Shown here: in pieces, positions 34,465-64,000 of the stretch
Layout: every line of letters starts with the position of its first letter
Numbering within the stretch: the first letter of the stretch is position 1
From: Lewinellaceae bacterium
GTDB lineage: Bacteria; Bacteroidota; Bacteroidia; Chitinophagales; Saprospiraceae
Length of the DNA: 64,000 nt
Reading direction: 5' to 3'
NCBI GenBank assembly: GCA_020636075.1
Contig: JACJYO010000005.1
Coordinates: 2,926-66,925, forward strand
Notes under the pieces: generated by a model
Database searches by the model: none
What the model saw: the letters and a program-made list of their open reading frames with translations, nothing else
Told to the model about the DNA's origin: nothing
Made by a program: the position numbers and the translations under genes

Positions 34465-34497
34465 GCCTTCAGCATCTTTCAGAGGCGGTTTTCTTGC

Positions 34498-34539: not shown

Positions 34540-34671
34540 ACGGAATATGGCCGGGCCAGCACTTTTGTGTCATCCTCCCATTGAAGTTGTAACGGCTGAA
34601 CTCAAACACTGCTGGCTACCCTGTGCGGCATCTGTTCAGACGGCATTTTGAATCATTAAAATCTGAACACA

Positions 34672-46127: not shown

Positions 46128-48304
46128 TTATTTTTTCATTTTCACCATCTTTTTCGTCAGCACCCCAAACGGCGTAACCAATTCACAATACAGCGCACCC
46201 GATGGCAAGTCGTTCAAAATCAACTCCTCCTGATGGCTGCCTGCCGGGTAAAACCGACTGGATTGGTACAGTTCACGCCCGTTGGTATCCCGGACGCGCA
46301 GCCGGGCGGTGCAAGCTTCCGGGAGTTCAAACGCCACCGTTGTTTTATCGACAAAGGGGTTGGGGTAAATACCCAGTTGACAGGTCGGGTCTTCGGATTC
46401 GGGGTGAACACCTGTGAGCGTCCCAAACTGCAACTTTACATCCGACTCGATCAGGCCGCTCGTGTACGCATAGGCCGGCAGTGTCTCTTCATCAAGCCAT
46501 AGCACATCGCGCAACTTAACGCCGCCCTCCAGCACTTTAAATTTCAATTGAAAAACCTGCGATGCCTCGCCCAGCGCTATGCCCTCAGCCTGGGACCAAA
46601 CCGAACGCAGTTCTCCATCGGCCTGGTCGGGCCTTGCGAAATTATCTTCTGTCAATGGCAATTCTCCCAACGGCTCCACGGCCTCCAGCGCCAGATAATC
46701 CCGGTCGAAACCCAGCGAAAACTGCCAGGCTACCAGATCGGTAAACTGGTCGGCCCGGAAGGTTACCGGCAACTCCTGACCGGCTTCCAACGCAACATCT
46801 TCCGCACGCAATACCAAGGGCGATGGCGCAATCAGATTGGACGGATCCGCATAACTGTCGATCACATCCCCGATTTTGATACCCCGGAAATCCTGACCCG
46901 ACACACTGCCACCTACTCCCGTCAGGTCAATTTTTTCGGGAAATCCCCAGGGCGGCAAGGGAAGCGTGTAGGCCGCCGGTACAAATCGCCAGGAATTTGC
47001 AAACAGATTCAGCGCCGTGGGATTTCCCAAAAGTGCCTGTTTGATGATGAGTGCGTCCAGCGTGGATATGGAATTGCTGTTGTTCACATCCGCAGCCACT
47101 TGTTTATACGGGCTGCTGATCGGAGCATAGCCGGTCAGGTGCTGCTGGATGGCGGTGGCATCGGCCACTGTGACGCCATTGTTTTGTTGATATTCTTACT
47201 GGGTGTCACCGTGAAGTTGGAGCCGTTTGCGGCCGTCAGGGTGTACGTGCCGGCAAGTGGCGTCAGGGCGCTGTCCATATCGTCGCCGGTAAGGACCACC
47301 GTGGCATCCTTTACGCCGCTTGCGCCATCGTGTTCCCACAATATGATGCCTGAAATGCCGATCAGGGCTGCAAAGTCGCCGTCGAACACGGCAAAGGGCC
47401 CCACACTGCTGATACCCGAGCGGATCAGGCTGTACGGATCGCTGCCCGCGGCAGCAGCGGCAGGCTGGTTGTCCCAACTGCCGGCCAGATAGTGGGAAAC
47501 GTAAGCCTGCGTGCGATCAAAGGTAGCCTGCTCCTCGGCGCTGTTCCACTGGAGTGTCAGGCTCAAATCGGAACCGCCGGCCGTGTTTTCTTCGACAAAC
47601 CAGCCACGGCCTACGGCATCGGCCGTAATGGGCGAGCCGGTAGTGCCCCCGCTCAATACGGCGTCGGCCACGCGCACGAGGTAGACATCCGGTGTACCGG
47701 CGTTGGTGAGTGTGGCGGGGTTGTACGCGCTGTTGCCGACGGGAAAGTCCACCGGCGTAGCGCCCACGTGGCGCACCAGGGAGCCCGTACCATCGGTGCG
47801 CACGTGCCGGGTTGCGTCGTAGCCGCTTAAATCCGCAACTTCGAGGTTGTTATTCCCCAGCACGGCGTAGTTATCGGCAGCCTGGAAGTCGAGCTGGTTG
47901 GTCACTTCCAGGTCGTCGGCCAAAAGCAGGTTGTTGCCAACCGATTTATTCAAAACCAGCAGGTAAAACGCCGAGCCGCCGGAAGTGACGGTGCTGTGTT
48001 GGGCGCCTTCAAAAGTGACCGTGGAGGCCCCGGCGTTGAAGTTGGCGGTGTTGGTCCAGTTGCCACCGATGTGGTACTGGCCGTCGCCCTGGAGCGTGGC
48101 GCCGGTGGTGTTGGTCAGGTCGGCGGGGGTGCGCAGGGTGCCATCGACGGTGAGGGTAGCGCCGTCGGTGTTAGTCACGCCGTTTTGGGCAACGACGTAG
48201 CTCCCGCCAGGTATAACAATAAAGCTACCCTGATTTTGGAGTTGGGCCTGCGCCGACATGGAAAACAGGCTGAAACCTGCATATATGAGCCATCGTTTTT
48301 TCAT
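46128..48304 (-). pseudogene. Partner-family gene downstream of the minus-strand fibre array, split by a 1-nt deletion near 47182-47185
   Basis: Start MKKRWLIYAGFSLFSMSAQA|Q (cat 48302-48304). The frame stops at 47135. The second frame is open from 47195 and reads ...NNGVTVADATAIQQHL, collinear with the paralogues (KN.N.LNG.TVGD.LAIQQHL). DVNNSNSISTLDALIIKQALLG. CTD YPNPFVDKTTVAFELPEACTARLRV. Confidence 0.75.
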
Positions 48305-48431
48305 GATAAAAGGTTTGTTTTTATCCAATCGCAGTTCAGGTAGGCCGGAGCAGCGAACCGCCGTTCTCGAAAGCAGTCCGCCCTCCGGTTCTGAACACGC
48401 TTTTGTGTTAGGTTTGAATTGTATTTCCGGT

Positions 48432-50465
48432 TTACTTGCTCTTTTCGATTGCTGTTTCGCTTGTCTCAAGCTGCATTTGCCGCAAAGCGGTCTCAAGTAC
48501 TTCCAAGCGTTTTTCAAATGCACTGTTTTGCGCTTTTATGGCTTCCATTTGGGAAAGTCGTGCTTCAAGTTCAGCGATACGTTCTTGCTGGGCTTCGATT
48601 GTCGCCTGCTGATCCTGGACGGACTTCACCAGCAGGGGTGTGAGTTTCCCATAATCCACCATCCAGGGGTCGGTGATGACATCATCGCCGCCTTTGGAGA
48701 CAGCCGCCGGATACACCTTGTACAAATCCTGAGCAATAAAGCCGGTTTGTTTGCGACCCGGTTCGGTCCGGAACTCGTAATCCTGCACGTCGATCTTCAA
48801 CAAATCGTCAAGGGAGTAAGCCGTCGGCACAATATGTTGTTTGAGCCGTACATCGGAACTGGTACTGAAATTGATCGTGCTGGCGCCGTCCTGGCGAACC
48901 GTTCCGATCTCGGCACCGTCGGGGCGGTAAAAAGCGATAAAGCGGGAGTTAGCGCCGTTATTGTTATCCTTGCCCGCCTGGATTTTCAGGCCGTTGTAGC
49001 GGGTACTGTTGGTTGCATCGGTGTCGGTGTTTTTGATCGTCGCTACAAAATCAGTGCTTGTGGAACCCGATGCGGCGCCTTCCACGTGGAGCCGTGTTGC
49101 CGGGCTGGCTATTCCGATACCGACATTGCCGTTTGCATCCACAAAAACACCTTCGTTGCCACCATCGCCTGAAAGGTAGTTGCCGTTGAGTATGAGGTTC
49201 TGTGTGGAAGTGTGGTTGCCCAGATTATCCGCGACGGAAGGCAGGTTAGTTAAGCCTGAGCCGTCGCCGACAAAGGCCGCGGCGGTGACTGTACCGGCAT
49301 TGTCAATACTTACCGTTTGGGTGGGGGTACCGGAGCCGTCGATGGCCGTCACGAAACGCACCCCGCCGGTAGCGCGAGCGGCAAACTCGTTGGCAGCTGC
49401 CGAGTTGAAATCAAGGTTGTTGCCGTCGGAAAACAAGAAGGCGCCGTTGTGGGCAGCGTCGATCTTTGCACGACGACCGGCAGCCAGGCTATAATCGCCA
49501 CCGGCGCTGTTCAGGCTGCCGCCGGGAACTGTAGAAGCAGACCCGGCGGCGGTGTTCCCAAGCGAACTACCCAGAAATCCGCCGCCACCGCCTATTGTGG
49601 CGTTCGTACCGCTGGCCTTGTTATTACTGCCGCCACCGACTGTAGCACGCACGCCATTGGCGACGTTGTTCTCTCCTCCAAGCACCGATGCTCCCTGAGC
49701 CGTTGCACTATTTGATTCGCCGCCACCGACTAGTGAACGCAGGCCATTGGCGCTGTTACCTACTCCCCCGGAGACAACGGCATAATTGCCGTTGGCTTTG
49801 TTGTCGAAGCCTCCACCTACATTAGAATAAACTCTTGCGCTGTTGTTTCGTCCGCCGGAGATAACAGCGTAATCGCCGTCGGCTGTGTTGTTTAGTCCTC
49901 CACCGATGGTAGCAAATGATTTTGAAATCGTATTTATTCCACCGCTTTTTCCACCGCCACTGATGGTCGCGCCGAAAACCCCTGCGGCAACCGTATTGCC
50001 GCTAAAGCCGCCGATGAGGTTCGACGCCGGAGTGGTGGTTCCGAAGAGCGGATCGATTTCTTCCGCATATTCCAGGCGCAGCCCGCGCGCATTATTCACG
50101 CGGAAATCCAGCGCCACGTTGTCGGTGGTGCCGATGAAATTCGTGCCGTCCACCGTGCCGGTATTGCCGGTCAGGTTCCAGCCGCTGATGAGCCGTACCC
50201 AGCTGCCGCTGTCCCGGTACCAGAACGATTCGGTATCGGTATCAAACACCAGCAGGCCCGTAGCCGGGTTGGCAATAGCTGTGCGTTGGGCTGTAGTCAT
50301 GCGGGGAACGAGCATGCCCTTGTCGCTGCTTTTGACGTCGAGCATAGCAGAGGGGTCGGGGCTGGAGTTGTCCTGGTTGATGGAGACCTGGGCAGCGAGC
50401 GGCGAGACCAGGACTAAGAAGGAAAAGAATAGTAGCGTACGCATATTGATCGTTGTTTTTCGCAT
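48432..50465 (-). CDS. Exported tail-fibre-like protein, S74-type (one 318-aa unit)
   Basis: 677 aa. MRKTTINMRTLLFFSFLVLVSPLAA|QVSINQDNSSPDPSAMLDVKSSDKGMLVPRMTTAQR. GGVRFVTAIDGSGTPTQTVSIDNAGTVTAAAFVGDGSGL. SSDVRLKQHI (Ser codon 48855-48857). Confidence 0.85.
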   Translation of the reverse strand: MRKTTINMRTLLFFSFLVLVSPLAAQVSINQDNSSPDPSAMLDVKSSDKGMLVPRMTTAQRTAIANPATGLLVFDTDTESFWYRDSGSWVRLISGWNLTGNTGTVDGTNFIGTTDNVALDFRVNNARGLRLEYAEEIDPLFGTTTPASNLIGGFSGNTVAAGVFGATISGGGKSGGINTISKSFATIGGGLNNTADGDYAVISGGRNNSARVYSNVGGGFDNKANGNYAVVSGGVGNSANGLRSLVGGGESNSATAQGASVLGGENNVANGVRATVGGGSNNKASGTNATIGGGGGFLGSSLGNTAAGSASTVPGGSLNSAGGDYSLAAGRRAKIDAAHNGAFLFSDGNNLDFNSAAANEFAARATGGVRFVTAIDGSGTPTQTVSIDNAGTVTAAAFVGDGSGLTNLPSVADNLGNHTSTQNLILNGNYLSGDGGNEGVFVDANGNVGIGIASPATRLHVEGAASGSTSTDFVATIKNTDTDATNSTRYNGLKIQAGKDNNNGANSRFIAFYRPDGAEIGTVRQDGASTINFSTSSDVRLKQHIVPTAYSLDDLLKIDVQDYEFRTEPGRKQTGFIAQDLYKVYPAAVSKGGDDVITDPWMVDYGKLTPLLVKSVQDQQATIEAQQERIAELEARLSQMEAIKAQNSAFEKRLEVLETALRQMQLETSETAIEKSK

Positions 50466-50476
50466 GATTCAAACAT

Positions 50477-53400
50477 TTATTTTTTGCCGCTATCCCGGTT
50501 TGATGGGGCTGGCTGCTGGTTTTGTTGCAATGCGGCTTCGATCCGTTCGAAGCGTTGTTCGAAGGCGGCGTTTTGTGCTTTAGCCTGGGAAAGTTGCGCT
50601 TCGAGTTCGGCGATGCGTTTTTGTTGGGCATCAATAGTGGCCTGCTGATCCTGCACCGATTTGACCAGCAAGGGCGTCAATTTGCCGTAATCCACCATCC
50701 AGGGATCGGTGACGACATCATCGCCGCCTTTGGAGACAGCCGCCGGATATACCTTGTACAAATCCTGAGCGATAAAGCCGGTTTGTTTGCGACCCGGCTC
50801 GGTCCGGAACTCATAATCCTGCACTTCGATCTTCAACAAGTCGTCAAGGGAGTAAGCCGTCGGCACGATATGCTGCTTGAGCCGTATATCGGAACTGGTA
50901 CTGAAATTGATCGTGCTGGCGCCGTCCTGGCGAACCGTCCCGATCTCGGAACCGTCGGGCCGGTAAAAGGCGATGAAGCGGGAGTTGGCGCCGTTATTGT
51001 TATCCTTGCCCGCCTGGATTTTCAAGCCGTTGTAGCGGGTAGTATTGGTTACATCGGTGTCGGTGTTTTTGATCGTCGCTACAAAATCCGTGCTTGTGGA
51101 ACCCGATGCGGCGCCTTCCACGTGGAGCCGTGTTGCCGGGCTGGCTATCCCGATACCCACATTGCCGGTGAAATCGGCGTTGCCGGAAACGCTCAACTTG
51201 TTTGCCGGAGTGGTGGCGCCGATGCCGACATTGCCATCGGTGTCGATACGCATTTTTTCACTGCCTTCACGGGAGAATGCGAGGTCGCTGCCATCTACCA
51301 GAAGTGCATGTCCTTTCGTTGCGATGGTCCATGACCTTTGGTTGTCGCCGTTAGTGTGGCCCTCAAGTTCCAGTGAGGCTGTAGCAGTTGCCGTTTGGCT
51401 GATTTTGAGGTTGCCGTCGTTGATGTGCAGTTTCTCATCTGGTATGGCGGTGCCGATGCCCATTTTTTCACTGCCTTGATCGAAGTAGAAATGCGTAGCG
51501 CTTCCGTCGGCGCTTCTGAATTCTACCCGGCCATCTGTATCTATGAAAAACCGTTTTGTGGGAGTACCACTTACATTGCGTAAACGAAGGTGCGTTGCAG
51601 ACGCAGCGTTGTCGCCTTTATCTTGTTGAAACTCCCAGGCACGAAGTGTATTGAACCTGAGCAAGGTTAGACCATCCAGATTACTATTCCCATCACCAAC
51701 AATCAAGCTATCTGCTCTGATGGCTCTGCCATTCACAATATCATTGTTGTTCATATCAAGTGCTTGCGTAGCCGTGTGGTTGCCGAGGTTGTCGCCGGGC
51801 AGGGTGGATAAATTCACGCTGTTACCATCTTCAATGCTTAAGGTGGTACCGCTGAGGCTGAGTGTTTGGTCGTCTGTGCCGATGCCGGACAGATTGACGG
51901 CATTGCCGTTCTCGATGCTTAGCGTGGCGCCGCTGAGGCTTAGCGTTTGATCGTCTGTACTGATGCCGGCCAAATTGACAGCGTTACCGTTCTCGATGCT
52001 TAGCGTGGCGCCGCTGAGGCTTAGCGTTTGATCGTCCGTATTGAGGTTGGCCAGGTTTACACTGTTGCCACCATCGATGCTCAGCGTGGCGCCGTCGAAG
52101 CTGAGGTTTTGCAGCTCATTGGTGGGGTTGGCATCCGCATCATCCACATTGATACCTGTCAAGCCCGAGCCGTCACCGACAAATGCCGCGGCGGTGACCG
52201 TGCCGGTGTTGTCAATACTTACCGTTTGGGTGGGGGTACCGGAGCCGTCGATGGCCGTCACGAAACGCACCCCGCCGGTAGCGCGCGCGGCAAACTCGTT
52301 GGCCGCTGCCGAGTTGAAGTTAACGTTGTTGTCATCGGAAAACAGGAAGGCGCCGTCGTGGGCAGCGTCGATCTTCGCACGATGACCGGCGGCCAGGCTG
52401 TAATCGCCACCGGCACTGTTCAGGCTGCCGCCGGGCACGGTAGAACTAACCCCGCTGGCGGTGTTCCCAAGCGAACCACCCAGAAATCCGCCACCACCGC
52501 CTATTGTGGCATTCGTACCGCTGGCCGTGTTATTAGCGCCGCCACCGACTGTAGCACGCAGGCCACTGGCGCGGTTGTCCTCACCTCCGGCCACTGTTGC
52601 TGTCTGAGCCGTTGCCACATTTGTTTCGCCACCACCGACTGTCGACCTTATACCCGTTGCGCTGTTATCTTGTCCACCGGAAACCACGGCGCCACCGCCG
52701 CTGGCCGTGTTGTTTGAACCTCCACCGACACTTGCATATCCAGATGCGCTGTTATTGTGTCCACCGGAGACAACCGCGCCATAGCCGTTTGCCGTGTTGC
52801 CTAGGCCGCCGCCGATGGTTGAAAATGATGCTGAAACCGTATTTATACCACCGCTTTGCCCACCGCCACTGATGGTCGCGCCGAAAACACCTGCCCCAAC
52901 TGTATTGCCGCTAAAGCCGCCGATGAGGTTCGGAGCCGGCTTGGTGATTCCGAAGAGCAGATCGAATTCTTCCGCATATTCCAGGCGCAGCCCGCGCGCA
53001 TTGTTCACGCGGAAATCCAATGCCACGTTGTCGGTGGTGCCGATGAAATTCGTGCCGTCTACGGTGCCGGCATTGCCGCTCAGGTTCCAGCCTGCTCCAG
53101 CGGGAAGGTTGGTCAGCCCCGAGCCGTCACCGACAAATGCCGCGGCGGTGACCGTGCCGGTGTTGTCAATACTTACCGTTTGGGTGGGGGTACCGGAGCC
53201 GTCGATGGCCGTCACGAAACGCACCCCGCCGGTAGCGCGCGCGGCAAACTCGTTGGCGGCTGCCGAGTTGAAGTTAACGTTGTTGTCATCGGAAAACAGG
53301 AAGGTGCCGTCGTGGGCAGCGTCGATCTTCGCACGATGACCGGCGGCCAGGCTGTAATCGCCACCGGCACTGTTCAGGCTGCCGCCGGGCACGGTAGAAC

Positions 53401-55282
53401 TAACCCCGCTGGCGGTGTTCCCAAGCGAACCACCCAGAAATCCGCCACCACCGCCTATTGTGGCATTCGTACCGCTGGCCGTGTTATTAGCGCCGCCACC
53501 GACTGTAGCACGCAGGCCACTGGCGCGGTTGTCCTCACCTCCAGCCACTGTTGCTGTCTGAGCCGTTGCCACATTTGTTTCGCCACCACCGACTGTCGAC
53601 CTTATACCCGTTGCGCTGTTATCTTGTCCACCGGAAACCACGGCGCCACCGCCGCTGGCTGTGTTGTTTGAACCTCCACCGACACTTGCATATCCAGATG
53701 CGCTGTTATTGTGTCCACCGGAGACAACCGCGCCATAGTCGTTTGCCGTATTGCCTAGGCCGCCGCCGATGGTGGAAAATGATGCTGAAATCGTATTTAT
53801 ACCACCGATTTGGCCACCGCCACTGATGGTCGCGCCGAAAACACCTGCCCCAACTGTATTGCCGCTAAAGCCGCCGATGAGGTTCGGAGCCGGCTTGGTG
53901 ATTCCGAAGAGCAGATCGAATTCTTCCGCATATTCCAGGCGCAGCCCGCGCGCATTGTTCACGCGGAAATCCAGCGCCACGTTGTCGGTGGTGCCGATGA
54001 AATTTGTGCCGTCTACCGTGCCGGTATTGCCAATCAGGCTCCAGCCCGCTCCGGCGGGAAGGTTGGTCAGCCCTGAGCCGTCGCCGACAAATGCCGCGGC
54101 GCTGACCGTGCCGGTGTTGTCAATACTTATCGTTTGGGTAGGATTGCCGGAGCCGTCGATGGCCGTCACGAAACGCACTCCGCCGGTAGCGCGCGCGGCA
54201 AACTCGTTGGCGGCTGCCGAGTTGAAGTCAACGTTGTTGCCATCGGAAAACAGGAAAGCGCCGTCGTGGGCAGCGTCGATCTTCGCACGACGACCGGCGG
54301 CCAGGCTGTAATCGCCACCGGCACTGTTCAGGCTGCCGCCGGGTACGGTAGAACTAAACCCCGCGGCGGTGTTGCCAAGCGAAACACCCAGAACTCCGCC
54401 ACCACCGCCTATTGTGGCGTTAGCACCGCTGGCCGTGTTATAAGCGCCGCCACCGACTGTAGCCCGCAGGCCACTGGCGCTGTTGAGCCCACCTCCAGCC
54501 ACCGTGGCTCCCTGAGCCGTTGCATTATTTAAGTCGCCGCCACCAATTGTCGAAGAACCTCCCGTTGCATTGTTAGATTGTCCACCGGAGACAACGGCGC
54601 TACCGCCGTTGGCTGTGTTGAAACTGCCGCCACCAACTGTCGAAAAACCTCCCGTTGCGCCGTTAACTTGTCCACCGGAGACAACGGCGCCATAGCCATT
54701 GGCCGTGTTTAAAAAGCCGCCACCGATAGTGGAAAATGAGCCTGAAGTCGCATTGATACCACCGGTTCTCCCACCACCACTGATGGTCGCGCCGATAACC
54801 CCCGCGGCAACCGTATTGCCGCTAAAGCCGCCAATGAGGTTCGGAGCGACAGTGGTTCCGAAGAGTGGATCGATTTCTTCCGCATATTCCAGGCGCAGCC
54901 CGCGCCCGTTGTTCACGCGGAAATCCAGCGCCACGTTGTCGGTGGTGCCGATGAAATTTGTGCCGTCCACCGTGCCGGCATTGCCCGTCAGGCTCCAGCC
55001 GCCCATGAGCCGCACCCAGCCGCCGCTGTCCCGGTACCAGAACGATTCGTTATCGGTATCAAAAACCAGCAGACCCGTGGCCGGGTTGGCAATAGCTGTG
55101 CGCTGGGCTGTTGTCATGCGGGGCACGAGCACACCCTTGTCGCTGCTCTTGACGTCGAGCATGGCCGATGGGTCGGGAGCGGAGTTGTCCTGGTTGACGC
55201 TGACCTGGGCAGCGAGCACATCCGTGAAAAACAGGCTACAGCCCAGCAGGGCCAGGCGGAACATAACAGTGCTAAATTTCAT
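50477..55282 (-). CDS. Exported tail-fibre-like protein, S74-type, with three tandem 318-aa units
   Basis: 1601 aa. ...FFTDVLAA|QVSVNQDNSAPDPSAMLDVKSSDKGVLVPRMTTAQR. Three units (TGN.GTVDGTNFIGTTDNVALDFRVNN ... GGVRFVTAIDGSG.PTQT.SIDNTGTV.AAAFVGDGSGL). Four LS(L/F)(S/D)GATLSI.(N/G)GN.VNL stalk repeats plus a fifth, GTTLSIEDGNSVNL. SSDIRLKQHI (Ser codon 50891-50893). Confidence 0.9.
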   Translation of the reverse strand: MKFSTVMFRLALLGCSLFFTDVLAAQVSVNQDNSAPDPSAMLDVKSSDKGVLVPRMTTAQRTAIANPATGLLVFDTDNESFWYRDSGGWVRLMGGWSLTGNAGTVDGTNFIGTTDNVALDFRVNNGRGLRLEYAEEIDPLFGTTVAPNLIGGFSGNTVAAGVIGATISGGGRTGGINATSGSFSTIGGGFLNTANGYGAVVSGGQVNGATGGFSTVGGGSFNTANGGSAVVSGGQSNNATGGSSTIGGGDLNNATAQGATVAGGGLNSASGLRATVGGGAYNTASGANATIGGGGGVLGVSLGNTAAGFSSTVPGGSLNSAGGDYSLAAGRRAKIDAAHDGAFLFSDGNNVDFNSAAANEFAARATGGVRFVTAIDGSGNPTQTISIDNTGTVSAAAFVGDGSGLTNLPAGAGWSLIGNTGTVDGTNFIGTTDNVALDFRVNNARGLRLEYAEEFDLLFGITKPAPNLIGGFSGNTVGAGVFGATISGGGQIGGINTISASFSTIGGGLGNTANDYGAVVSGGHNNSASGYASVGGGSNNTASGGGAVVSGGQDNSATGIRSTVGGGETNVATAQTATVAGGEDNRASGLRATVGGGANNTASGTNATIGGGGGFLGGSLGNTASGVSSTVPGGSLNSAGGDYSLAAGHRAKIDAAHDGTFLFSDDNNVNFNSAAANEFAARATGGVRFVTAIDGSGTPTQTVSIDNTGTVTAAAFVGDGSGLTNLPAGAGWNLSGNAGTVDGTNFIGTTDNVALDFRVNNARGLRLEYAEEFDLLFGITKPAPNLIGGFSGNTVGAGVFGATISGGGQSGGINTVSASFSTIGGGLGNTANGYGAVVSGGHNNSASGYASVGGGSNNTASGGGAVVSGGQDNSATGIRSTVGGGETNVATAQTATVAGGEDNRASGLRATVGGGANNTASGTNATIGGGGGFLGGSLGNTASGVSSTVPGGSLNSAGGDYSLAAGHRAKIDAAHDGAFLFSDDNNVNFNSAAANEFAARATGGVRFVTAIDGSGTPTQTVSIDNTGTVTAAAFVGDGSGLTGINVDDADANPTNELQNLSFDGATLSIDGGNSVNLANLNTDDQTLSLSGATLSIENGNAVNLAGISTDDQTLSLSGATLSIENGNAVNLSGIGTDDQTLSLSGTTLSIEDGNSVNLSTLPGDNLGNHTATQALDMNNNDIVNGRAIRADSLIVGDGNSNLDGLTLLRFNTLRAWEFQQDKGDNAASATHLRLRNVSGTPTKRFFIDTDGRVEFRSADGSATHFYFDQGSEKMGIGTAIPDEKLHINDGNLKISQTATATASLELEGHTNGDNQRSWTIATKGHALLVDGSDLAFSREGSEKMRIDTDGNVGIGATTPANKLSVSGNADFTGNVGIGIASPATRLHVEGAASGSTSTDFVATIKNTDTDVTNTTRYNGLKIQAGKDNNNGANSRFIAFYRPDGSEIGTVRQDGASTINFSTSSDIRLKQHIVPTAYSLDDLLKIEVQDYEFRTEPGRKQTGFIAQDLYKVYPAAVSKGGDDVVTDPWMVDYGKLTPLLVKSVQDQQATIDAQQKRIAELEAQLSQAKAQNAAFEQRFERIEAALQQNQQPAPSNRDSGKK
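52171..55032 (-). repeat. Three tandem 954-bp coding repeats; the two at 52171-54078 are nearly identical
   Basis: cgtc(a/g)ccgacaaatgccgcggc recurs at 52171, 53125 and 54079, exactly 954 bp apart. Confidence 0.9.
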
Positions 55283-55348
55283 AATACGAGAACTTTACCT
55301 TTTGATGGAAATAAACAAACACAAAGTTGCCGGCACCCGACTGAAAAA

Positions 55349-55380
55349 AATCCGACATTAAACAAAAGGAATCCGACATT
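55349..55380. promoter_or_regulatory. Direct repeat AATCCGACATT x2 with 21-bp phasing, 67-98 nt upstream of fibre gene 50477-55282
   Basis: Copies at 55349-55359 and 55370-55380 (plus-strand reading), in the only long (157-nt) spacer inside the minus-strand array. Confidence 0.4.
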
Positions 55381-55439
55381 TTGGAAAGTATGCTCCCGCA
55401 AAACCGCCGTTTTCCCGGCATAATCAAATAGGCCACAAC

Positions 55440-56410
55440 TTATTTGATAGCGGCTTCTGATTTTTCATTATTAAGCTTTTGCTGCATTTGCAAAAACAAG
55501 GATTCCAACTGGTCAATTCTTGCAACCTGGGCTTCAAGTTCGGCGATGCGTTTTTGCTGGGCATCAATGGTGGCCTGCTGATCCTGCACCGATTTGACCA
55601 GCAAGGGCGTCAATTTGCCGTAATCCACCATCCAGGGGTCGGTGACGACATCCTCGCCGCCTTTGGAAACAGCCGCTGGATATACCTTGTACAAATCCTG
55701 AGCGATAAAGCCGGTTTGTTTGCGGCCCGGCTCGGTCCGGAACTCGTAATCCTGCACTTCGATCTTCAACAGATCGGCAAGGGAGTAAGCCGTCGGCACG
55801 ATATGTTGTTTTAGCCGTACATCGGAACTGGTACTGAAATTGATCGTGCTGGCGCCGTCCTGGCGAACCGTCCCGATCTCGGCACCGTCGGGCCGGTAAA
55901 AAGCGATGAAGCGGGAGTTGGCGCCGTTACTGTTAACCTTGCCTGCCTGGATTTTCAGGCCGTTGTAGCGGGTAGTATTGGTGGCATCGGTGTCGGTGTT
56001 TTTGATCGTCGCTACAAAATCAGTGCTTGTGGAACCGGATGCGGCGCCTTCCACATGGAGCCGTGTTGCCGGGCTGGCTATTCCGATACCCACATTGCCG
56101 GTGAAATCAGCGCTGCCGGAAACGCTCAACTTGTTTGCCGGAGTGGTGGCGCCGATGCCGACATTGCCATCGGTGTCGATACGCATTTTTTCACTGCCTT
56201 CACGGGAGAATGCGAGGTCGCTGCCATCTACCAGAAGTGCATGTCCTTTCGTTGCGATGGTCCATGACCTTTGGTTGTCGCCGTTAGTGTGGCCCTCAAG
56301 TTCCAGTGAGGCTGTAGCAGTTGCCGTTTGGCTGATTTTGAGGTTGCCGTCGTTGATGTGCAGTTTCTCGTTTGGTGTGCTGGTTCCGATGCCGAGACGG
56401 CCATGATGAG
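55440..56410 (-). pseudogene. Orphan 3' part of a fibre gene (collar + S74 module), no start or signal peptide
   Basis: The open frame from ~56410 reads SPHHGRLGIGTSTPNEKLHINDGNLKISQTATATASLELEGHTNGD...MRIDTDGNVGIG...SSDVRLKQHI.... It is nearly identical to 50590-51440 of the neighbouring gene, except for the last ~35 codons. Confidence 0.75.
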
Positions 56411-56536
56411 GTGATTAGCAATTTTTCCACGCCATTGGGTTCAAATACGAATTCTACCCAACATTAGTCCTCAACCGCAGACTCGCACTACCCGGATAAA
56501 ACCCTATTCCGTAATCGAAGGTGCGTTGCATTTTTT

Positions 56537-59011
56537 TCAACTCAAGTTGGCTTCACTGGCACTTCCTCCAATTGCTTCAATAAGAACAATGGCATCTTGC
56601 TGACTGGGTCGGGATACGTGGAGGCCGTAGCCGGACTTGCAGTATTCCCGATGCCAACAATTGCCATTTGCATCCACAAAAACACCTTCGTTGCCTCCAT
56701 CACCGGACAGCCACTTGCCGTTGAGCGTGAGGTTTTGCGTAGCCGTGTGGTTGCCGAGGTTGTCGCCGGGCAGGGTGGATAAATTCACGCTGTTACCATC
56801 TTCGATGCTTAAGGTGGTACCGCTGAGGCTGAGTGTTTGGTCGTCTGTGCCGATGCCGGACAGATTGACGGCATTGCCGTTCTCGATGCTTAACATGGCG
56901 CCGCTGAGGCTGAGTGTTTGGTCGTCCGTATTAAGGTTGGCCAAGTTTACACTGTTGCCACCGTCGATGCTCAGGGTGGCTCCATCGAAGCTGAGGTTTT
57001 GTATCTCGTTGGTGGGGTTGGCATCAGCATCATTTACATTGATACCTGATAAGCCTGAGCCGTCACCGACAAAGGCCGCGGCAGTGACCGTGCCAGTGTT
57101 GTCAACACTTACCGTTTGGGTTGGGTTGCCGTCGCCGTCGATGGCCGTCACGAAACGCACCCCGCCGGTAGCGCGCGCGGCAAACTCGTTGGCAGCTGCC
57201 GAGTTGAAATCAAGGTTGTTGTGATCGGAAAACAGGAATGCGCCGTCGTGGGCAACGTCGATCTTTGCACGACGACCGGCGGCCAGGCTGTAATCGCCTC
57301 CGGCACTGTTCAGGCTGCCGCCACCGACTGCCGATGATATACCCGTTGCGCTGTTACTTACGCCACCGCAGACAACGGCGCCAATGCCGTTGGCTTTGTT
57401 GTCTACGCCTCCACCTACATTAGAAAATAATTTTGCGCTGTTATCTCGTCCACCGGAGACAACAGCGTAATCCTCATTGGCTTCGTTGTTTGTGCCTCCT
57501 CCGATGGTCGCAAATGGTGCTGAGATCGTATTTATACCACCGGTTATCCCACCACCACTGATGGTCGCGCCGATAATCCCTGCCGCAACCGTATTGCCAC
57601 TAAAGCCACCGATGATGTTCGGAGCCACAAAGGTTCCAAGGTCCGGATTGGTATTTGCCGCATATTCCAGGCGCAGCCCGCGTACATTATTCACGCGGAA
57701 ATCCAGCGCCACGCTGTCGGTGGTTCCGATGAAATTCGTGCCGTCTACCGTGCCCGCATTGCCCGTTATGGTCCAGTCGTTGCCAGACGGCAGGTTGATC
57801 AGTCCTGAGCCGTCACCGACAAAGGCCGCGGCGGTGACCGTACCGGTGTTGTCAATACTTACCGTTTGGGTGGGGGTACCGGAGCCGTCGATAGCCGTCA
57901 CGAAACGTACCCCGCCGGTAGCGCGGGCGGCAAACTCGTTGGCCGCTGCCGAGTTGAAGTTAACGTTGTTGTCATCGGAAAACAGGAAGGCCCCATCGTG
58001 GGCAGCGTCGATCTTCGCACGATGACCGGCGGCCAGGCTGTAATCGCCACCAGCACTATTCAGGCTGCCGCCGGGCACTGTAGAACTAACCCCGCTGGCG
58101 GTGTTCCCAAGCGGACCACCCAGAAATCCACCACCACCGGCTATTGTGGCGTTCCTACCGCTGGCCGTGTTATAAGCGCCGCCACCGACTGTAGCACGCA
58201 GGCCACTGGCGCTGTTATTCTGGCCTCCAGCCACCGTTGCTGTATAAGCCGTTGCATTATTTAAGGCGCCTCCACCGACTGTCGACCATGTATCCGTTGC
58301 ATTGTTATCACTTCCACCAGTGACAACGGCGGTACCACCATTAGCTTTGTTGTTCCGGCCTCCGCCTACAGTAGAATAAACATATGCGCTGTTCTCACTT
58401 CCACCAGCGACAACGGCACCAATGCCGTTGGCTGTGTTGTCGAAGCCTCCAGCTATGGTTGCAAATGGTGCTGAAATCGCATTTTTAAAATCGGTTTTCC
58501 CACCGCCACTGATGGTCGCGCCGATAACCCCCGCGGCAACCGAATTGCCGCTAAAGCCGCCAATGAGGTTCGGAGCGACAGTGGTTCCAAAGAAGGGATC
58601 GAATTCTTCCGCATATTCCAGGCGCAGCCCGCGCGCATTGTTCACGCGGAAATCCAGCGCCACGTTGTCGGTAGTGCCGATGAAATTTGTGCCATCTACC
58701 GTGCCGGCATTGCCCGTCAGGGTCCAGCCTGCTATTAGGTTCACCCAGGCACCGCTGTCCCGGTACCAGAACGATTCGGTATCGGTGTCAAATACCAGCA
58801 GGCCCGTGGCCGGGTTGGCAATGGCCGCGCGTTGGGCTGTTGTCATGCGGGGGACTAGCATGCCCTTGTCGCTGCTTTTTACGTCGAGCATGGCAGAGGG
58901 ATCGGGTGCGGAGTTGTCCTGGTTGACGCTGACCTGTGCAGCGAGCGGCGCGCCCAGGGCGAGGAGGCCAAAGAATAGTAGCGTACGCATATTGATTGTT
59001 TTTTTTCTCAT
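56537..59011 (-). pseudogene. 5' part of the same disrupted fibre gene (signal peptide, N-module, two 318-aa units, stalk repeats), lacking a chaperone module
   Basis: 824-aa ORF. MRKKTINMRTLLFFGLLALGAPLAA|QVSVNQDNS.... It ends ...VFVDANGNCWHREYCKSGYGLHVSRPSQQDAIVLIEAIGGSASEANLS*, where paralogues read NGNVGIGIASPATRLHV. Confidence 0.7.
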
Positions 59012-59022
59012 GATTCAAACGG

Positions 59023-61200
59023 TTACTTTTTGCCGCTTTCCCGGTTTGCTGCGGCTGGTTGCGGATTTTGTTGTAAAGCGGCTTCGAGCAGTTCGAAGCG
59101 TTTTTCGAAAGCGGCGTTTTGTGCTTCGAGTTCGGTGATGCGTTTTTGTTGGTCGTCCACGCGCCGTGCCAGCGCCAGGGTCGTTGAGGCCGCTGCCGGC
59201 AGGCCGACGACGGTGTTGACGCGCGCAGGGGTTTCACTTGTTTTCGATTCCCAGGCGCGGCCGACAATGCGGTTGGCCTGTTCCGGCGTGATATTTTGCG
59301 GCGACACTGCGATGGCTGTGCCGTCGTTCAGCCCGGAAGCGACGATGTAGTCGCCCATGGCGACGGTGCCGCGCACATACACCGGTACCTGGCCGATGAA
59401 ACTGACAATCTCATAATTCGCTTCGCTGCCGTCGTAGATGGCATTGCCGAGTACGACCGCCTGATCGCTGATCGCCATTACCCAGTCGGCGCCCTCGGTG
59501 CGTTTGCTGATCCTGCCGCCGAACACGCCGACCACCTCACCGGGGTTGATGGTTTCACTGTGGTCAAGTCGCTCCAATAATTCCGCATAGTCCGAGCCGC
59601 CGGATTGGAATTGCACGTCGCCGCTGTTGTTGTTTTCGATTTTGCCGGCGAGATCGGTGTTGTTTTCAAAAAACTCGACCCAGTTCCCGTTGCCGGGATT
59701 GCCGTTGAGGTTGGCGCTGAATTGCAGGGCTAACAAGCCTTGCTCCGTGCCGGCGTTGGTGTTGGTGTTGCGAATTTTGGCCACATAGTTGTTGGCACTG
59801 TTATTGGCGCCGACCACACTGTCCCGCACTTCCATCATGTTGGCCGGGCCGGCTGTACCGATGCCGACCTTGCCATTTGTACCCACAAAAACACCTTCGT
59901 TGTCTCCATCACCGGATAACCAATGGCCGTTGAGTCTGAGGTTCTGCGTGGCGGTGTGGTTGCCAAGATTATCAGCACCGGAAGGCAGGTTGGTCAAGCC
60001 TGAGCCGTCGCCGACAAATGCCGCGGCGCTGACCTTGCCGGTATTGTCAATACTTACCGTTTTGATGGGGTTGCCGGAGCCGTCGATGGCCGTTACGAAA
60101 CGCACCCCGCCGGTAGCACGTGCAGCAAACTCGTTGGCCGCTGCCGAGTTGAAGTCCGTGTTGTTGCCATCGGAAAACAGGAAGGTGCCGTCGTGGGCAG
60201 CGTCGATCTTTGCACGACGACCGGCGGCCAGGCTGTAATCGCCACCGGCACTGTTCCGGCTGCCACCGGGAACGGTAGAACTATTCCCGCTGGCAGTGTT
60301 TCCTAGCGAAACATTCAAATATCCGCCGCCACCGCCTATGGTGGCGTTCGTACCGCTGGCCGTGTTATGACTGCCGCCACCGACTGTAGCACGAAAGCCA
60401 CTGGCGATGTTACTCTGGCCTCCAGCCACCGTTGCATCCTCAGCCGTTGCATCATTTGAGGCGCCGCCACCGACTGTCGAGAAGGGACCTGTTGCGCTGT
60501 TATTTTGTCCCCCGGAGACAACGGCGCTCTGGCCATTGGCTGTGTTGTTGACGCCTCCGCCTACATTAGCATTAATATTGGCGCTGTTATTTGTTCCACC
60601 GGAGACAACGGCGCCATAGCCATTGGCAGTGTTGTTTGAGCCTCCACCGATGGTGGCAAATGATTTTGAAATCGCATTTATACCATCGCTTTTTCCACCG
60701 CCACTGATGGTCGCGCCGAAAACTCCACCCCCAACCGTATTGCCGCTAAAGCCGCCGATGAGGTTCGGCGCCGGCGAGGTGGTTCCGGAGAGGGGAATGA
60801 AGACTTCCGCATAGTCCAGGCGCAACCCGCGCGCATTATTCACGCGAAAATCCAGTGCCACGTTGTCGGTAGTGCCGATGAAATTTGTGCCGTCCACTGT
60901 GCCCGCATTGCCCGTCAGGCTCCAGCCGCTGATGAGCTGCACCCAGCCGCCGCTGTCCCGGTACCAGAACGATTCGGTATCGGTATCAAATACCAGCAGG
61001 CCCGTAGCCGGGTTGGCAATAGCCGTGCGCTGGGCTGTTGTCATGCGGGGGACTAGCACACCCTTGTCGCTGCTTTTTACGTCGAGCATGGCCGAAGGGT
61101 CAGGCGTGGAGTTATCCTGATTGATAGCCACCTGGGCTTGCACACCTGCAGCAAATAGCAGAAACGTAAGTAAAAAAAAGGTTGATTTTGACTTACACAT
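59023..61200 (-). CDS. Exported tail-fibre-like protein with Peptidase_G2-like C-terminal module
   Basis: 725 aa. MCKSKSTFFLLTFLLFAAGVQA|QVAINQDNSTPDPSAMLDV.... One 318-aa unit. GSDYAELLERLDHSETINPGEVVGVFGGRISKR...VVLGN...FIGQVPVYVRGTVAMGDYIVASG. Same module as 26072-27922. Confidence 0.85.
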   Translation of the reverse strand: MCKSKSTFFLLTFLLFAAGVQAQVAINQDNSTPDPSAMLDVKSSDKGVLVPRMTTAQRTAIANPATGLLVFDTDTESFWYRDSGGWVQLISGWSLTGNAGTVDGTNFIGTTDNVALDFRVNNARGLRLDYAEVFIPLSGTTSPAPNLIGGFSGNTVGGGVFGATISGGGKSDGINAISKSFATIGGGSNNTANGYGAVVSGGTNNSANINANVGGGVNNTANGQSAVVSGGQNNSATGPFSTVGGGASNDATAEDATVAGGQSNIASGFRATVGGGSHNTASGTNATIGGGGGYLNVSLGNTASGNSSTVPGGSRNSAGGDYSLAAGRRAKIDAAHDGTFLFSDGNNTDFNSAAANEFAARATGGVRFVTAIDGSGNPIKTVSIDNTGKVSAAAFVGDGSGLTNLPSGADNLGNHTATQNLRLNGHWLSGDGDNEGVFVGTNGKVGIGTAGPANMMEVRDSVVGANNSANNYVAKIRNTNTNAGTEQGLLALQFSANLNGNPGNGNWVEFFENNTDLAGKIENNNSGDVQFQSGGSDYAELLERLDHSETINPGEVVGVFGGRISKRTEGADWVMAISDQAVVLGNAIYDGSEANYEIVSFIGQVPVYVRGTVAMGDYIVASGLNDGTAIAVSPQNITPEQANRIVGRAWESKTSETPARVNTVVGLPAAASTTLALARRVDDQQKRITELEAQNAAFEKRFELLEAALQQNPQPAAANRESGKK

Positions 61201-61215
61201 AGCGAAGGTATTTCT

Positions 61216-63633
61216 TTAGTGTTGCTGATCGCCTTTTGAAAAGGTATCGTTAGAAGAAAGCGACAATGCGGCTTTGATGGCCTTTATGTCGGCTGACAAT
61301 TGGTCATTTTGGGTTTTCAATATTTCCAGTTGGGTTAGCTGCGCCTCCAGTACGGCGATGCGTTTTTGCTGGGCATCAATAGTGGCTTGTTGGTCTTGCA
61401 CCGCTTTGACCAGCAAGGGCGTCAATTTGCCGTAATCCACCATCCAGGGGTCGGTGATGACATCATCGCCGCCTTTGGAGACTGCCGCTGGATACACCTT
61501 GTACAAATCCTGAGCGATAAAGCCGGTTTGTTGGCGACCCGGCTCGGTCCGGAACTCATAATCCTGCACTTCGATCTTCAGCAAGTCGGCAAGCGAGTAA
61601 GCCGTCGGCACGATATGCTGCTTGAGCCGCACATCGGAACTGGTACTGAAATTGATCGTGCTGGCGCCGTCTTGGCGAACCGTCCCGATCTCGGCACCGT
61701 CGGGCCGGTAAAAGGCTATGAAGCGGGAGTTGGCGCCGTTATTGTTATCCTTGCCCGCCTGGATTTTCAGGCCGTTGTAGCGGGTACTGTTGGTTGCATC
61801 GGTGGTGGTGTTTTTGATCGTCGCTACAAAATCGGTACTTGTGGAACCCGATGCGGCGCCTTCCACGTGCAGCCATGTTTCCGGGCTGGCTATTCCAATA
61901 CCGACATTGCCGGTGAAATCGGCACTGCCCGAAACACTCAACTTATTTGCCGGCGCGGTGGTGCCGATACCGACATTGCCGGTGAAATCGGCACTGCCCG
62001 AAACGCTCAAATTGTTGGCTGGCGCGGTGGTGCCGATGCCCATTTTTTCACTGCTGTGATCGAAGTAGAAATGCGTAGCGCTTCCGTCAGCGCTTCTGAA
62101 TTCTACCCGACCATCTGTATCTATAAAAAACCGTTTTGTGGGAGTACCACTTACATTTCGTAAACGAAGGTGCGTTGCCGCATCAGAGTTAGTGCCTTTA
62201 TCTTGTTGAAACTCCCAGGCACGAAGTGTATTAAACCTGATCAAGGTCAGGCCATCCAGATTACTATTCCCATCACCAACAATCAAACTATCTGCTCTGA
62301 TGGCTCTGCCATTCACAATATCGTTGTTGTTCATAACAAGTGCTTGCGTGGCAGTATGGTTGCCCAGATTATCGCCGGGCAGGGTGGATAAATTCACGCT
62401 GTTACCATTCTCGATGCTTAGCGTGGCGCCGCTGAGGCTGAGCGTTTGGTCGTCGGTACCGATGCTGGGCAGATTGACTGAGTTGCCATTCTCGATGCTC
62501 AGCGTGGTGCCGCTGAGGCTAAGCGTTTGGTTGTCGGGAATGCCTGTCAAGCCCGAGCCGTTGCCGACAAATGCCGCGGCGCTGACCGTGCCGGTGTTGT
62601 CAATACTTACCGTTTCGGTGGGGTTGCCGGAGCCGTCGATGGCCGTCACGAAACGTACCCCGCCGGTAGCGCGCACGGCAAACTCGTCGGCAGCTGCCGA
62701 GTTGAAGTTAACGTTGTTGTGATCGGAAAACAGAAAGGTGCCGTCGTGAGCAGCGTCGATCTTCGCACGACGACCGGCGGCCAGGCTGTAATCGCCACCG
62801 GCACTGTTCAGGCTGCCGCCGGGTACGGTAGAACTACGCCCGCCAGCGATGTTGTTCTCGCCGCCAGCCACTGTTGATGTAATAGCCGTTGCCATATTTC
62901 CTGTGCCACCACCGACTGTCGACCATGCACTCGTTGCGCTGTTAGCAAGTCCACCGGAGACAACGGCGCCACCACCGCTGGCAGTGTTGAGTATACCTCC
63001 ACCCACACTTGCACCTCCGGATGCGCTGTTATCTGTTCCACCGGAGACAACAGCGCCAAAGCCATTGGCTGTGTTGTTCAGGCCTCCACCGATGGTGGCA
63101 AATTCTGCTGAAATGGTATTTATATTACCGCTTATTCCACCGCCACTGATGGTCGCGCCGTAAGCTGTAGCCGCAACCGTATTGCCGCTAAAGCCACCGA
63201 TGATGTTCGGCGCCGGAGAGATTATTCCAAAGTCCGGATCGATTCCTTCCGCATATTCCAGGCGCAGCCCACGCGCATTATTCACGCGGAAATCCAGCGC
63301 CACGTTGTCGGTGGTGCCGATGAAATTCGTGCCGTCCACCGTGCCGGCATTGCCGCTCAGGTTCCAGCCGCTGATAAGCCGCACCCAACTGCCGCTGTCC
63401 CGGTACCAGAACGATTCGGTATCGGTATCGAATACCAGCAGGCCGGTAGCCGGGTTGGCAATAGCCGTGCGTTGGGCCGTAGTCATGCGGGGCACGAGCA
63501 TGCCCTTGTCGCTGCTTTTTACGTCGAGCATGGCCGAGGGGTCGGGGGCGGAGTTGTCCTGGTTGACGCTAACCTGGGCGGTCAATGGCGTGCTGAGGGT
63601 GACCAAAAAGAAGAATAGTATTTGGATGCGCAT
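61216..63633 (-). CDS. Exported tail-fibre-like protein, S74-type (first gene of the minus-strand array)
   Basis: The true start is probably MRIQILFFFLVTLSTPLTA|QVSVNQDNSAPDPSAMLDV (cat 63631-63633), because the ORF-track start at 63834 adds 67 implausible residues. SSDVRLKQHI (Ser codon 61636-61638). Confidence 0.85.
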   Translation of the reverse strand: MRIQILFFFLVTLSTPLTAQVSVNQDNSAPDPSAMLDVKSSDKGMLVPRMTTAQRTAIANPATGLLVFDTDTESFWYRDSGSWVRLISGWNLSGNAGTVDGTNFIGTTDNVALDFRVNNARGLRLEYAEGIDPDFGIISPAPNIIGGFSGNTVAATAYGATISGGGISGNINTISAEFATIGGGLNNTANGFGAVVSGGTDNSASGGASVGGGILNTASGGGAVVSGGLANSATSAWSTVGGGTGNMATAITSTVAGGENNIAGGRSSTVPGGSLNSAGGDYSLAAGRRAKIDAAHDGTFLFSDHNNVNFNSAAADEFAVRATGGVRFVTAIDGSGNPTETVSIDNTGTVSAAAFVGNGSGLTGIPDNQTLSLSGTTLSIENGNSVNLPSIGTDDQTLSLSGATLSIENGNSVNLSTLPGDNLGNHTATQALVMNNNDIVNGRAIRADSLIVGDGNSNLDGLTLIRFNTLRAWEFQQDKGTNSDAATHLRLRNVSGTPTKRFFIDTDGRVEFRSADGSATHFYFDHSSEKMGIGTTAPANNLSVSGSADFTGNVGIGTTAPANKLSVSGSADFTGNVGIGIASPETWLHVEGAASGSTSTDFVATIKNTTTDATNSTRYNGLKIQAGKDNNNGANSRFIAFYRPDGAEIGTVRQDGASTINFSTSSDVRLKQHIVPTAYSLADLLKIEVQDYEFRTEPGRQQTGFIAQDLYKVYPAAVSKGGDDVITDPWMVDYGKLTPLLVKAVQDQQATIDAQQKRIAVLEAQLTQLEILKTQNDQLSADIKAIKAALSLSSNDTFSKGDQQH

Positions 63634-63818: not shown

Positions 63819-64000
63819 TCAATCCCGGACGCAACGGACGCTAAAGCCGTTCGACTTATTCTCTTCGGCGCGGATGACCTGCGCAGAATCGTAGAACAGT
63901 AGCCGGTACCAACCACCAGCGGATACACTGGACGACCAGAAGGTGGCGCTTCTGGCCTGATTGATGAACGGCCCGGTGGTGACGCGGAGCCCGGACGGCA
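63819..64000 (-). CDS. C-terminal end of a FISUMP-like (Fibrobacter succinogenes major paralogous domain) protein; 5' part outside the window
   Basis: Hand translation of the frame ending at TGA (tca 63819-63821): ...GLRVTTGPFINQARSATFWSSSVSAGGWYRLLFYDSAQVIRAEENKSNGFSVRCVRD*. The terminal G(F/Y)SVRCV(K/R)D is typical of that family. Confidence 0.5.
   Translation of the reverse strand, partial: PSGLRVTTGPFINQARSATFWSSSVSAGGWYRLLFYDSAQVIRAEENKSNGFSVRCVRD

Follow-up and report, generated by a model that had tools for sequence, protein, structure and literature searches.

The mosaic adhesive trimer (MAT) fibres of Bdellovibrio bacteriovorus are surface-displayed, glycan-binding proteins for which 'tip swapping' has been proposed (PMC10769870). 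We analysed a 64,000-nucleotide (nt) window from an uncultured Lewinellaceae bacterium (Bacteroidota, Saprospiria; assembly GCA_020636075.1, 596-kb contig JACJYO010000005.1, positions 2,926 to 66,925), in which five fibre paralogues, G1 to G5, lie head to tail on the minus strand within 48432-63633; by analogy, MAT fibres are their nearest characterised relatives in design. Both are multi-copy secreted fibres in which a signal peptide is followed by a conserved N-terminal domain, beta-rich and of ~130 aa in MAT fibres (PMC10769870), and both end either in an S74 module that bears SDxxxK or in a different tip. The trimeric beta-helical shaft of MAT fibres has V-G-x-x-x-x-P-x-x-x-L capping loops, which the VGIGxxxPxxxL motifs of the array resemble. 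The array differs in belonging to another phylum, in carrying one to three UspA1/YadA-type heads in the shaft, and in being built of tight tandem genes that end in a cohesin-dockerin partner of the type IX secretion system (T9SS). By predicted architecture it belongs to an uncharacterised family of MAT-like fibres that bear trimeric autotransporter adhesin (TAA) heads, and it is probably an ordinary, unprogrammed, recombining tandem array of genes for secreted, trimeric, self-chaperoned adhesin-type fibres, one of which has decayed.

Recombination among tandem adhesin paralogues is a familiar mechanism that will not surprise specialists. In Vomp of Bartonella quintana and UspA1/UspA2/UspA2H of Moraxella, as in our array, paralogues with a conserved 5' region and YadA-like heads stand in tandem, and recombination or deletion between copies yields hybrids and a gene number that varies by isolate (PMC10936683, PMC3458076). 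Unlike them, the array encodes a predicted self-cleaving chaperone in place of a C-terminal beta-barrel anchor and comes from an environmental organism, not a pathogen. A C-terminal S74 or G2 auto-processing chaperone is also found in phage fibres (endosialidase K1F 3GW6, the T5 L-shaped fibre and phi29 gp12), and phage tail fibres likewise exchange segments modularly by recombination, but only the C-terminal third is common to the array, which is cellular, Sec-secreted and outside a prophage. Neisseria pilE/pilS, Borrelia vlsE and Treponema tprK are antigenic variation systems fed by silent cassettes. They resemble the array in that conserved segments flank variable ones in tandem, and the array has one promoterless 3' fragment; it differs in having several complete genes, no cassette bank and no sign of high-frequency unidirectional conversion. 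The grappling hooks of Aureispira, which belongs to the same class, consist of GhpA, a T9SS substrate with Ig-like repeats that forms heptamers (bioRxiv 10.1101/2024.01.29.577165). Hooks and array are both long extracellular adhesive structures linked to T9SS, which for the array we infer; unlike GhpA, the array fibres have no T9SS sorting domain, and the partner gene alone carries one. Saprospiria (Lewinellaceae, Saprospiraceae) are abundant in wastewater sludge, and descriptions of their surface structures have only begun to appear. Members of this class live attached to other bacteria.

Open reading frame (ORF) listing and translation confirmed the original prediction of five same-strand paralogues: G1 (61216..63633, 805 amino acids [aa]), G2 (59023..61200, 725 aa), the disrupted G3 (55440-59011 as a whole), G4 (50477..55282, 1601 aa) and G5 (48432..50465, 677 aa), with spacers of 15, 11, 157 and 11 nt between them. 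Self-blastn of the window gave kilobase alignments of 80-96% identity, a degree of paralogy beyond chance expectation. The module order is a signal peptide, a 69-aa N-module, one or more head units of ~315-318 aa, 27-aa stalk repeats, optional mid modules that carry VGIGxxxPxxxL motifs and are predicted to be beta-helical, and a C-terminal module. From G1 to G5 there are 1, 1, 2, 3 and 1 head units and 2, 0, 3, 4 and 0 stalk repeats, which bears out the variation in copy number first noted by eye; the C-terminal modules, then said to alternate between S74-like and G2-like, in fact run S74, G2, S74, S74, S74. Each of the four intact genes opens with an ATG of its own and encodes a signal peptide. 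Every signal peptide ends in A-Q, i.e. with Gln at +1, which fits the signal-peptidase-I 'Q-rule' of Bacteroidota.

The five genes had been described as near-identical ends around variable cores, a picture that our measurements changed in most respects. The 5' ends are less alike than supposed: the N-modules (207 nt; 63370-63576 in G1, 60928-61134 in G2, 58730-58936 in G3, 55001-55207 in G4 and 50184-50390 in G5) share 85.5-91.3% nt and 88-97% aa identity, the example windows on which the description was based share 87.7-93.0%, and the signal peptides (63577-63633 in G1) share 37-84% nt and 27-76% aa identity. At the 3' ends of the S74-type genes, the named windows are indeed 92.4-95.3% identical, but the near-identity does not extend to the terminal coiled-coil tails, where the last ~40-55 codons are unrelated among genes. 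This applies to the private tails of G1 (61219-61377), G3 and G5, the exception being the tail of G4 (50480-50632), which the last ~45 aa of G2 resemble. The cores do vary in copy number and in one hypervariable ~270-nt stretch inside each unit; the units nevertheless remain 82-87% nt and 76-83% aa identical in pairwise comparison, and the contrast between ends and cores is small. These units comprise one each in G1 (62536-63369, with a 37-aa deletion), G2 (59983-60927) and G5 (49239-50183), two in G3 (57788-58729 and 57047-57778, the second with a 67-aa deletion) and three in G4 (54056-55000, 53102-54046 and 52148-53092), where units 2 and 3 reach 96.9% nt and 96.8% aa identity at a synonymous divergence (dS) of 0.07. 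Judged from these alignments, the array genes are homologous over their full length and differ mainly in module copy number and in the hypervariable unit stretch, rather than being identical flanks around unrelated cores.

Synonymous and nonsynonymous (dN) divergence, estimated by the Nei-Gojobori method, separated conservation from recent exchange. The N-module had dN of 0.03-0.09 and dS of 0.33-0.53 (median 0.47), giving dN/dS of ~0.1, and whole units had a median dN of 0.13 and a median dS of 0.31 (unit dS 0.23-0.38). Used as a query, the 69-aa N-module matched 37,760 protein clusters at E<=1e-3 and 9,573 at 1e-10. Because its dS is at least that of the core and it occurs in so many clusters, the likeness of the N-modules is explained by protein constraint, not conversion; the 5' end encodes a structural domain of very wide distribution that purifying selection conserves, and the suggestion that it is a product of conversion did not hold. 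Such constraint is also the whole account of conservation offered by plain tandem duplication with independent divergence and no exchange. That account fully explains the N-module, and it agrees with the grouping of head units by orthologue across genomes, not by genome.

The remaining modules behave differently from the N-module. The S74 tip, upstream of the cleavage motif (61639-61905 in G1, 55827-56093 in the 3' fragment of G3, 50894-51160 in G4 and 48858-49124 in G5), had dN of 0.015-0.036 and dS of 0.13-0.23 (~0.18), and the S74 chaperone behind it (61378-61638, 55566-55826, 50633-50893 and 48597-48857, respectively) had dN of 0.015-0.028 and dS of 0.20-0.72 depending on the pair. In a codon bootstrap, the dS of the N-module fell to or below that of the tip in 0.2% of replicates; for the unit 3' border the figure was 15%, which is not significant. 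Within units, the first ~135 nt and last ~300 nt had dN of 0.04-0.08 and dS of 0.21-0.30 (0.43 in the last 90 nt), and the centre, corresponding to the beta-roll (columns 226-495), had dN of 0.24-0.30 and dS of 0.36-0.65, with dN/dS of 0.5-1 and locally ~1. The S74 tip thus looks younger than the rest and recently homogenised, as expected after exchange between copies, and the unit borders are perhaps younger too. On these estimates the beta-roll centre, which would form the head surface, is the truly variable part and diverges fast.

Recombination or gene conversion among the array copies, which had been suspected from the layout, was supported by several kinds of evidence. The pairwise homoplasy index (PHI) test gave p=0.001 for the N-module plus first unit and p=0.0005 for the eight units, and the quartet-informative sites of G1, G3, G4 and G5 were split over all three topologies in every segment (19, 15 and 11 sites in the first unit). 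Segments of equal dN differed 2- to 3-fold in dS, which also varied by pair. G3 at 56393-55531 and G4 at 51460-50598 share 863 nt at 95.8% identity with no indels, including a 256-nt exact block, and in a Sawyer-type run test this 3' tract had a global P of 0.003; that block aside, no exact repeat shared by different genes exceeds 88 nt. The same window holds a clear case elsewhere: two paralogous partner genes 12 kb apart, B and C, share a ~400-nt tract (approximately 17265-17663 and 29295-29693) with 8 mismatches (98%) between flanks that differ by 20-50%, which reads as a textbook gene-conversion tract. The PHI values, the conflicting quartets, the segment-specific dS and the B/C tract, together with the chimeric genes of three other contigs (L059, L001 and L061) described below, all stand against duplication followed by undisturbed divergence, which we regard as very unlikely.

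Comparison sequences, which were contigs from metagenome-assembled genomes (MAGs) and metagenomes, revealed candidate products of such exchange. Two contigs of the same species, L012 and L013, match the window at 99.2-99.3% identity, and both stop inside a paralogous partner gene just before the array, as is usual for short-read assemblies at repeats. In a second lineage, represented by L001 (from GCA_041392545.1), L061 (from GCA_020436405.1) and the ENA contigs L059 and L062, tracts of 99-100% identity to the window genes alternate with tracts of 86-95%, and copies of G2 are 97-100% identical in L001, L059 and L062. The gene upstream of G2 in L059 joins 359 nt identical to the tip of window G3 to 371 nt identical to the G1 chaperone and tail; it is apparently intact, with its 3' end read to the stop, and the 3' ends of window G1 and G3 share at most 53 exact nt. 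Gene 4 of L001 has a G5-type body with a 138-nt head deletion that runs into 300 nt identical to the G1 tail. L061 and L001 were sequenced in different projects, yet over ~1.8 kb, from the 3' end of G3 across the spacer and signal peptide to the N-module, they agree at 100% identity; they part at the N-module/unit border, where L061 becomes G4-like and L001 G5-like, a chimera of G4 head and G5 body. L001 also contains three G2-like copies and an intact G3 of 978 aa with one unit and seven stalk repeats. Neither congruent segment trees nor an invariant locus were therefore found, though gene order is broadly stable, since contigs assembled independently show the same G1-G2-G3 and G3-G4 junctions. 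A scan of JGI metagenomes with G1 returned distant relatives only (<=55% identity) and no alternative arrangements.

The disrupted G3 is the decayed member of the array. Its 5' ORF (56537..59011, 824 aa, with three stalk repeats) loses frame at ~56659, and the segment at 56394..56659 contains several frame changes and in-frame stops. The 3' orphan fragment (55440..56393, first ATG at 56186) begins with a mid2 module, ends with a private tail, and has kept its reading frame and a low dN. The corresponding module is intact in the G3 orthologues from L001 and L061, and against it the decayed segment has ~65-70% nt identity and at least six indels. Because a divergence of 30-35% with many indels separates it from intact orthologues, it is a real pseudogene segment; sequencing error as the cause of the disruption was rejected, as this exceeds read error. 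The suggestion that the orphan fragment is a leftover or a donor fits its 359-nt exact match to the apparently intact L059 gene.

The mosaicism and the disruption could instead largely reflect assembly, if repeats were collapsed or joined into chimeras and long-read indels were left uncorrected. Three window genes are frameshifted (partners B and D, and G3), the 1-nt deletion near 47183 that splits partner D is absent from same-species L013, L012 and L013, which are short-read contigs, end within the partner gene before the array, and L001 also has split genes, all as assembly error would predict. However, the paralogues differ by 9-18% and are easily told apart, the recurrent junctions come from independent assemblies, the 1.8 kb common to L001 and L061 is identical across projects, the decayed part of G3 is far too divergent, and the L059 crossover lies where window paralogues share no more than 53 exact nt. 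We therefore consider a largely artefactual origin improbable. The single-base frameshifts in partners B and D may be real mutations or long-read assembly errors.

Some observations weigh against recombination among the copies of a single array of secreted fibres. Repeat-driven parallel substitutions can inflate the PHI test, and outside the G3/G4 3' tract the Sawyer-type run test found mostly 20-90-nt tracts that were not significant after global correction; we make no claim of recent long conversion tracts among G1, G2, G4 and G5. Exact runs common to paralogues can lead short-read assemblers into building chimeras, and the 53-nt ceiling on such runs, to be set against k=141 for L059, comes from the window paralogues and not from those of the L059 strain itself. 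Some of the apparent alleles may reflect transfer between lineages instead of local conversion, and L001 is perhaps from another species. Homologue searches with the FAD oxidoreductase and cluster look-ups found no recorded orthologue of >=90% identity for the window's non-fibre flanking genes in the MAG of L001, and the L001 array adjoins a different hybrid kinase than the window's, which is suggestive of a different lineage. Finally, the fibres carry no recognisable outer-membrane export or anchoring signal: in Pfam scans and translations of the array fibres, an autotransporter anchor, a lipobox and a T9SS sorting domain were all absent.

The array had also been likened to a surface-variation locus, and in its strongest form this would be programmed, high-frequency antigenic or phase variation, with the conserved ends as recombination handles and with variable cores, and the G3 fragment as a silent donor, being copied into expressed genes as in pilE/pilS, vlsE or tprK. 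In its favour, there is one orphan 3' cassette, in frame and with low dN, whose sequence recurs base for base in the apparently intact L059 gene, and the breakpoints in L059 and L001 recur at the same conserved S74 region. The organisation of the array is different from such a system: four intact genes with their own starts and signal peptides, beside one orphan fragment, leave neither a single expression site with several promoterless cassettes nor a silent-cassette set. In addition, the supposed 5' handle has the highest dS among the conserved modules compared, exact repeats between genes are mostly no longer than 88 nt, and gene order is kept in independent contigs. No recombinase or reverse transcriptase was found in a Pfam scan of the 24 window ORFs of >=200 aa (gap ORFs of >=60 aa were read by eye only), a scan that ran to the window's end at 64000, so that the region upstream of G1 beyond this point lies outside it. 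Inverted repeats were restricted to weak ones (18-38 nt, 74-86%), and the window showed no features of a shufflon, an invertible promoter or a diversity-generating retroelement. We saw no sign that the array is a programmed cassette-switching system; the idea of a dedicated variation locus was not upheld, and we judge programmed variation unlikely as an explanation of its mosaicism.

We detected Peptidase_S74 (PF13884) at 43.7-47.7 bits, against a cut-off of 22, in G1 (43.7 bits), the 3' part of G3, G4 and G5, each with an SD[VI]RLK motif (SDVRLK at residue 666 in G1, SDIRLK in G4 and SDVRLK in G5). Peptidase_G2 (PF11962) was found in G2 alone, where the C-terminal chaperone module (59026-59865) contains SDYAE at residue 536 and scores a borderline 25.2 bits against a cut-off of 25. 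The PTL_trimer family (PF26696), for which a literature search found no paper, was assigned by proxy, since our local Pfam copy was without it, from precomputed matches on cluster representatives >=90% identical to G1 and G2; a further precomputed match is on P0001, a protein 81% identical to G5. No NCBIfam family covered any window fibre, and exact protein look-ups found neither window G1 nor G2 on record. Close homologues combine PF26696 with S74, G2, H-lectin or DUF1566 ends. In other proteins the N-module is frequently internal and repeated 3-13 times, and it was rejected as a demonstrated cell anchor on that account.

The head unit matched the Moraxella UspA1 head 3pr7 at E values of 3.6e-17 and 5.2e-18. 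An AlphaFold monomer model of G5 (mean pLDDT 75.7) has a beta-roll at residues 110-260 with pLDDT >90 and a long C-terminal helix, and its fold matches UspA1 and Fusobacterium CbpF (Foldseek probability 1.0 for both) as well as the intramolecular-chaperone (ICA) domain of MyRF. Matches to the Bdellovibrio Bd2133 fibre were weak, with E 0.085 by sequence and E 0.019 by fold (TM 0.07-0.13). From these matches and the model, the heads are predicted to be left-handed beta-rolls of the UspA1/YadA type. The array proteins are not TAAs, as the YadA-type beta-barrel anchor was absent in Pfam scans. Analogy with the characterised fibres suggests that they trimerise, cleave themselves, are displayed on the surface and act as adhesins, with a location that is probably the cell surface.

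Viral structure matches were to 'intramolecular chaperone auto-processing' and YadA-like fibre proteins, and close homologues in Saprospiraceae and Lewinellaceae MAGs are publicly named 'tail fiber domain-containing protein'. With S74 and G2 chaperone domains typical of phage fibres, the array might be taken for the tail-fibre cluster of a remnant prophage, tailocin or contractile injection system. Yet phage genomes match residues ~375-660 only, with 25-33% identity in this C-terminal third; no copy lacks a Sec signal peptide; the neighbours are T9SS cargo and two-component regulators; and no phage structural, replication or lysis genes were found in the 64-kb window. An origin of this kind is hardly credible.

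We propose that the ordinary, recombining array expanded as whole genes, and head units within them, were duplicated in tandem, and that homologous recombination, unequal crossing-over and gene conversion would keep reshuffling it. Exchange would fall at the N-module/unit junction, at unit ends and in the S74 tip/chaperone region, leading to lineage-level variation in gene number, head number, stalk length and chimeric junctions. By analogy with phage tailspikes and MAT fibres, the chaperone would nucleate trimer folding and then cut itself off together with the private coiled-coil tail, so that the mature fibre may lack both the private tails and most of the conserved 3' block. The array illustrates where a fibre repertoire could come from: genes and head units are duplicated, the beta-roll surface changes fast, and copies recombine at module borders. 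Further modules mapped in the array are the stalk of G4 (four repeats in an 81-nt tandem array at 51834-52094), the mid1 modules of G1 (62044-62382, after the two stalk repeats) and G4 (51464-51802), and mid2 of G4 (51161-51463).

The array is part of a larger fibre island, in which the window holds at least ten fibre-family genes in six cassettes. Five more fibre genes lie on the plus strand at 6323-10066, 13148-15853, 18678-22118, 26063-27922 and 34672-38175, with N-modules at 6380, 13247, 18825, 26141 and 34750, respectively. They have differing shafts and end in S74, G2 or DUF4082; the N-module at 6369-6687 shares 88% nt identity with that of G5, as close as array members are to one another. 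The fibre gene at 34672-38175 contains 5.75 tandem copies of a 180-nt (60-aa) YadA-head repeat at 34982-36016. Its counterpart in same-species L013 has four fewer of these repeats (923 aa against 1167 aa), which is either real length variation or short-read collapse.

Each single fibre gene, as well as the five-gene array, is followed by a partner gene, and the partners form a paralogous family. Partners A (10076-12274), B (15865-~18060) and C (27934-30108) are T9SS cargo proteins of one type, to which operon-terminal partner D (46128..48307, minus strand), after the array, also belongs; E (22449-25646) and F (38472-40154) are more divergent relatives. Besides a conserved N-domain, proteins of the A-D type (~730 aa) have dockerin-like and cohesin-like domains and, at the C-terminus, a sorting domain for T9SS; partner D encodes a signal peptide and an N-domain of ~330 aa. 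The frameshift of partner B is a single-base gap within 17565-17663, inside the tract it shares with C. The layout of one to three fibre genes followed by a partner was also found in L002, L003, L004, L005 and L060. This recurrence suggests that the pairing reflects a functional partnership, e.g. in anchoring or export, and that Bacteroidota may display such fibres by a route not described before.

The G3-G4 spacer (55283..55439, 157 nt) contains a direct repeat, AATGTCGGATT-N10-AATGTCGGATT, at 55370-55380 and 55349-55359 on the minus strand, followed by CAACTTTG. The same element stands upstream of fibre genes in L001 (2195 and 9904), L002 (8563 and 10643), L003 (5408), L060 (138) and L061 (1450), and is kept even where the proteins are only 70-80% identical. 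It is likely a regulator-binding site plus promoter and a candidate to drive G4, G5 and partner D, which are probably co-transcribed as a regulated unit of their own. Upstream of the fibre genes at 18678 and 26063, the regions 18583-18773 and 25918-26107 are 92% identical and contain two copies of AATGCGCATATAGT, and TTGGAACATATCCGAAAACA occurs in two copies upstream of the fibre gene at 34672 (34490-34540); it seems that every cassette type carries an operator-like repeat of its own. A scan for sigma-70 promoters and terminators, which is ill-suited to Bacteroidota, gave counts close to those expected from shuffled sequence. The island encodes three two-component regulators, hybrid or classical. 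Immediately downstream of partner D, a hybrid sensor kinase/response regulator (41940..45893, minus strand) with Reg_prop, Y_Y_Y, HisKA, HATPase, REC and Hpt domains is, by its position, a possible regulator of the array; a TAnnTTTG motif was present only upstream of the kinase.

The most original aspect of this locus is not recombination but the recurring pairing with a T9SS cohesin-dockerin protein together with the conserved regulatory repeat. The pairing, the promoter-proximal repeat and the adjoining hybrid kinases offer leads on how fibres with no known export signal are displayed and controlled. As a tentative and more doubtful proposal, these genes may specify a new two-part Saprospiria appendage, in which anchorless Sec-secreted fibres are carried or anchored by the T9SS partner, hybrid two-component regulators switch expression by acting on the AATGTCGGATT repeats, and recombination makes the repertoire. 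If so, the array would hold a repertoire of fibre lengths and head surfaces at the level of the population, which could serve attachment to other bacteria, whether filaments or prey, in activated sludge.

At the edge of the window, the 3' end of a gene upstream of G1 (63822..64000, minus strand) ends in ...NGFSVRCVRD* and has a partial FISUMP-type domain (TIGR02145, E 4e-6). This may be a sixth fibre with a different, lectin-like tip, in which case the array extends past the window. Near the opposite end, a T9SS cargo protein at 3575-5101, in which only the sorting domain was assigned, consists of ~52-aa Cys-rich repeats (DPCDP...GAGPF.CVDDV...NCPP).

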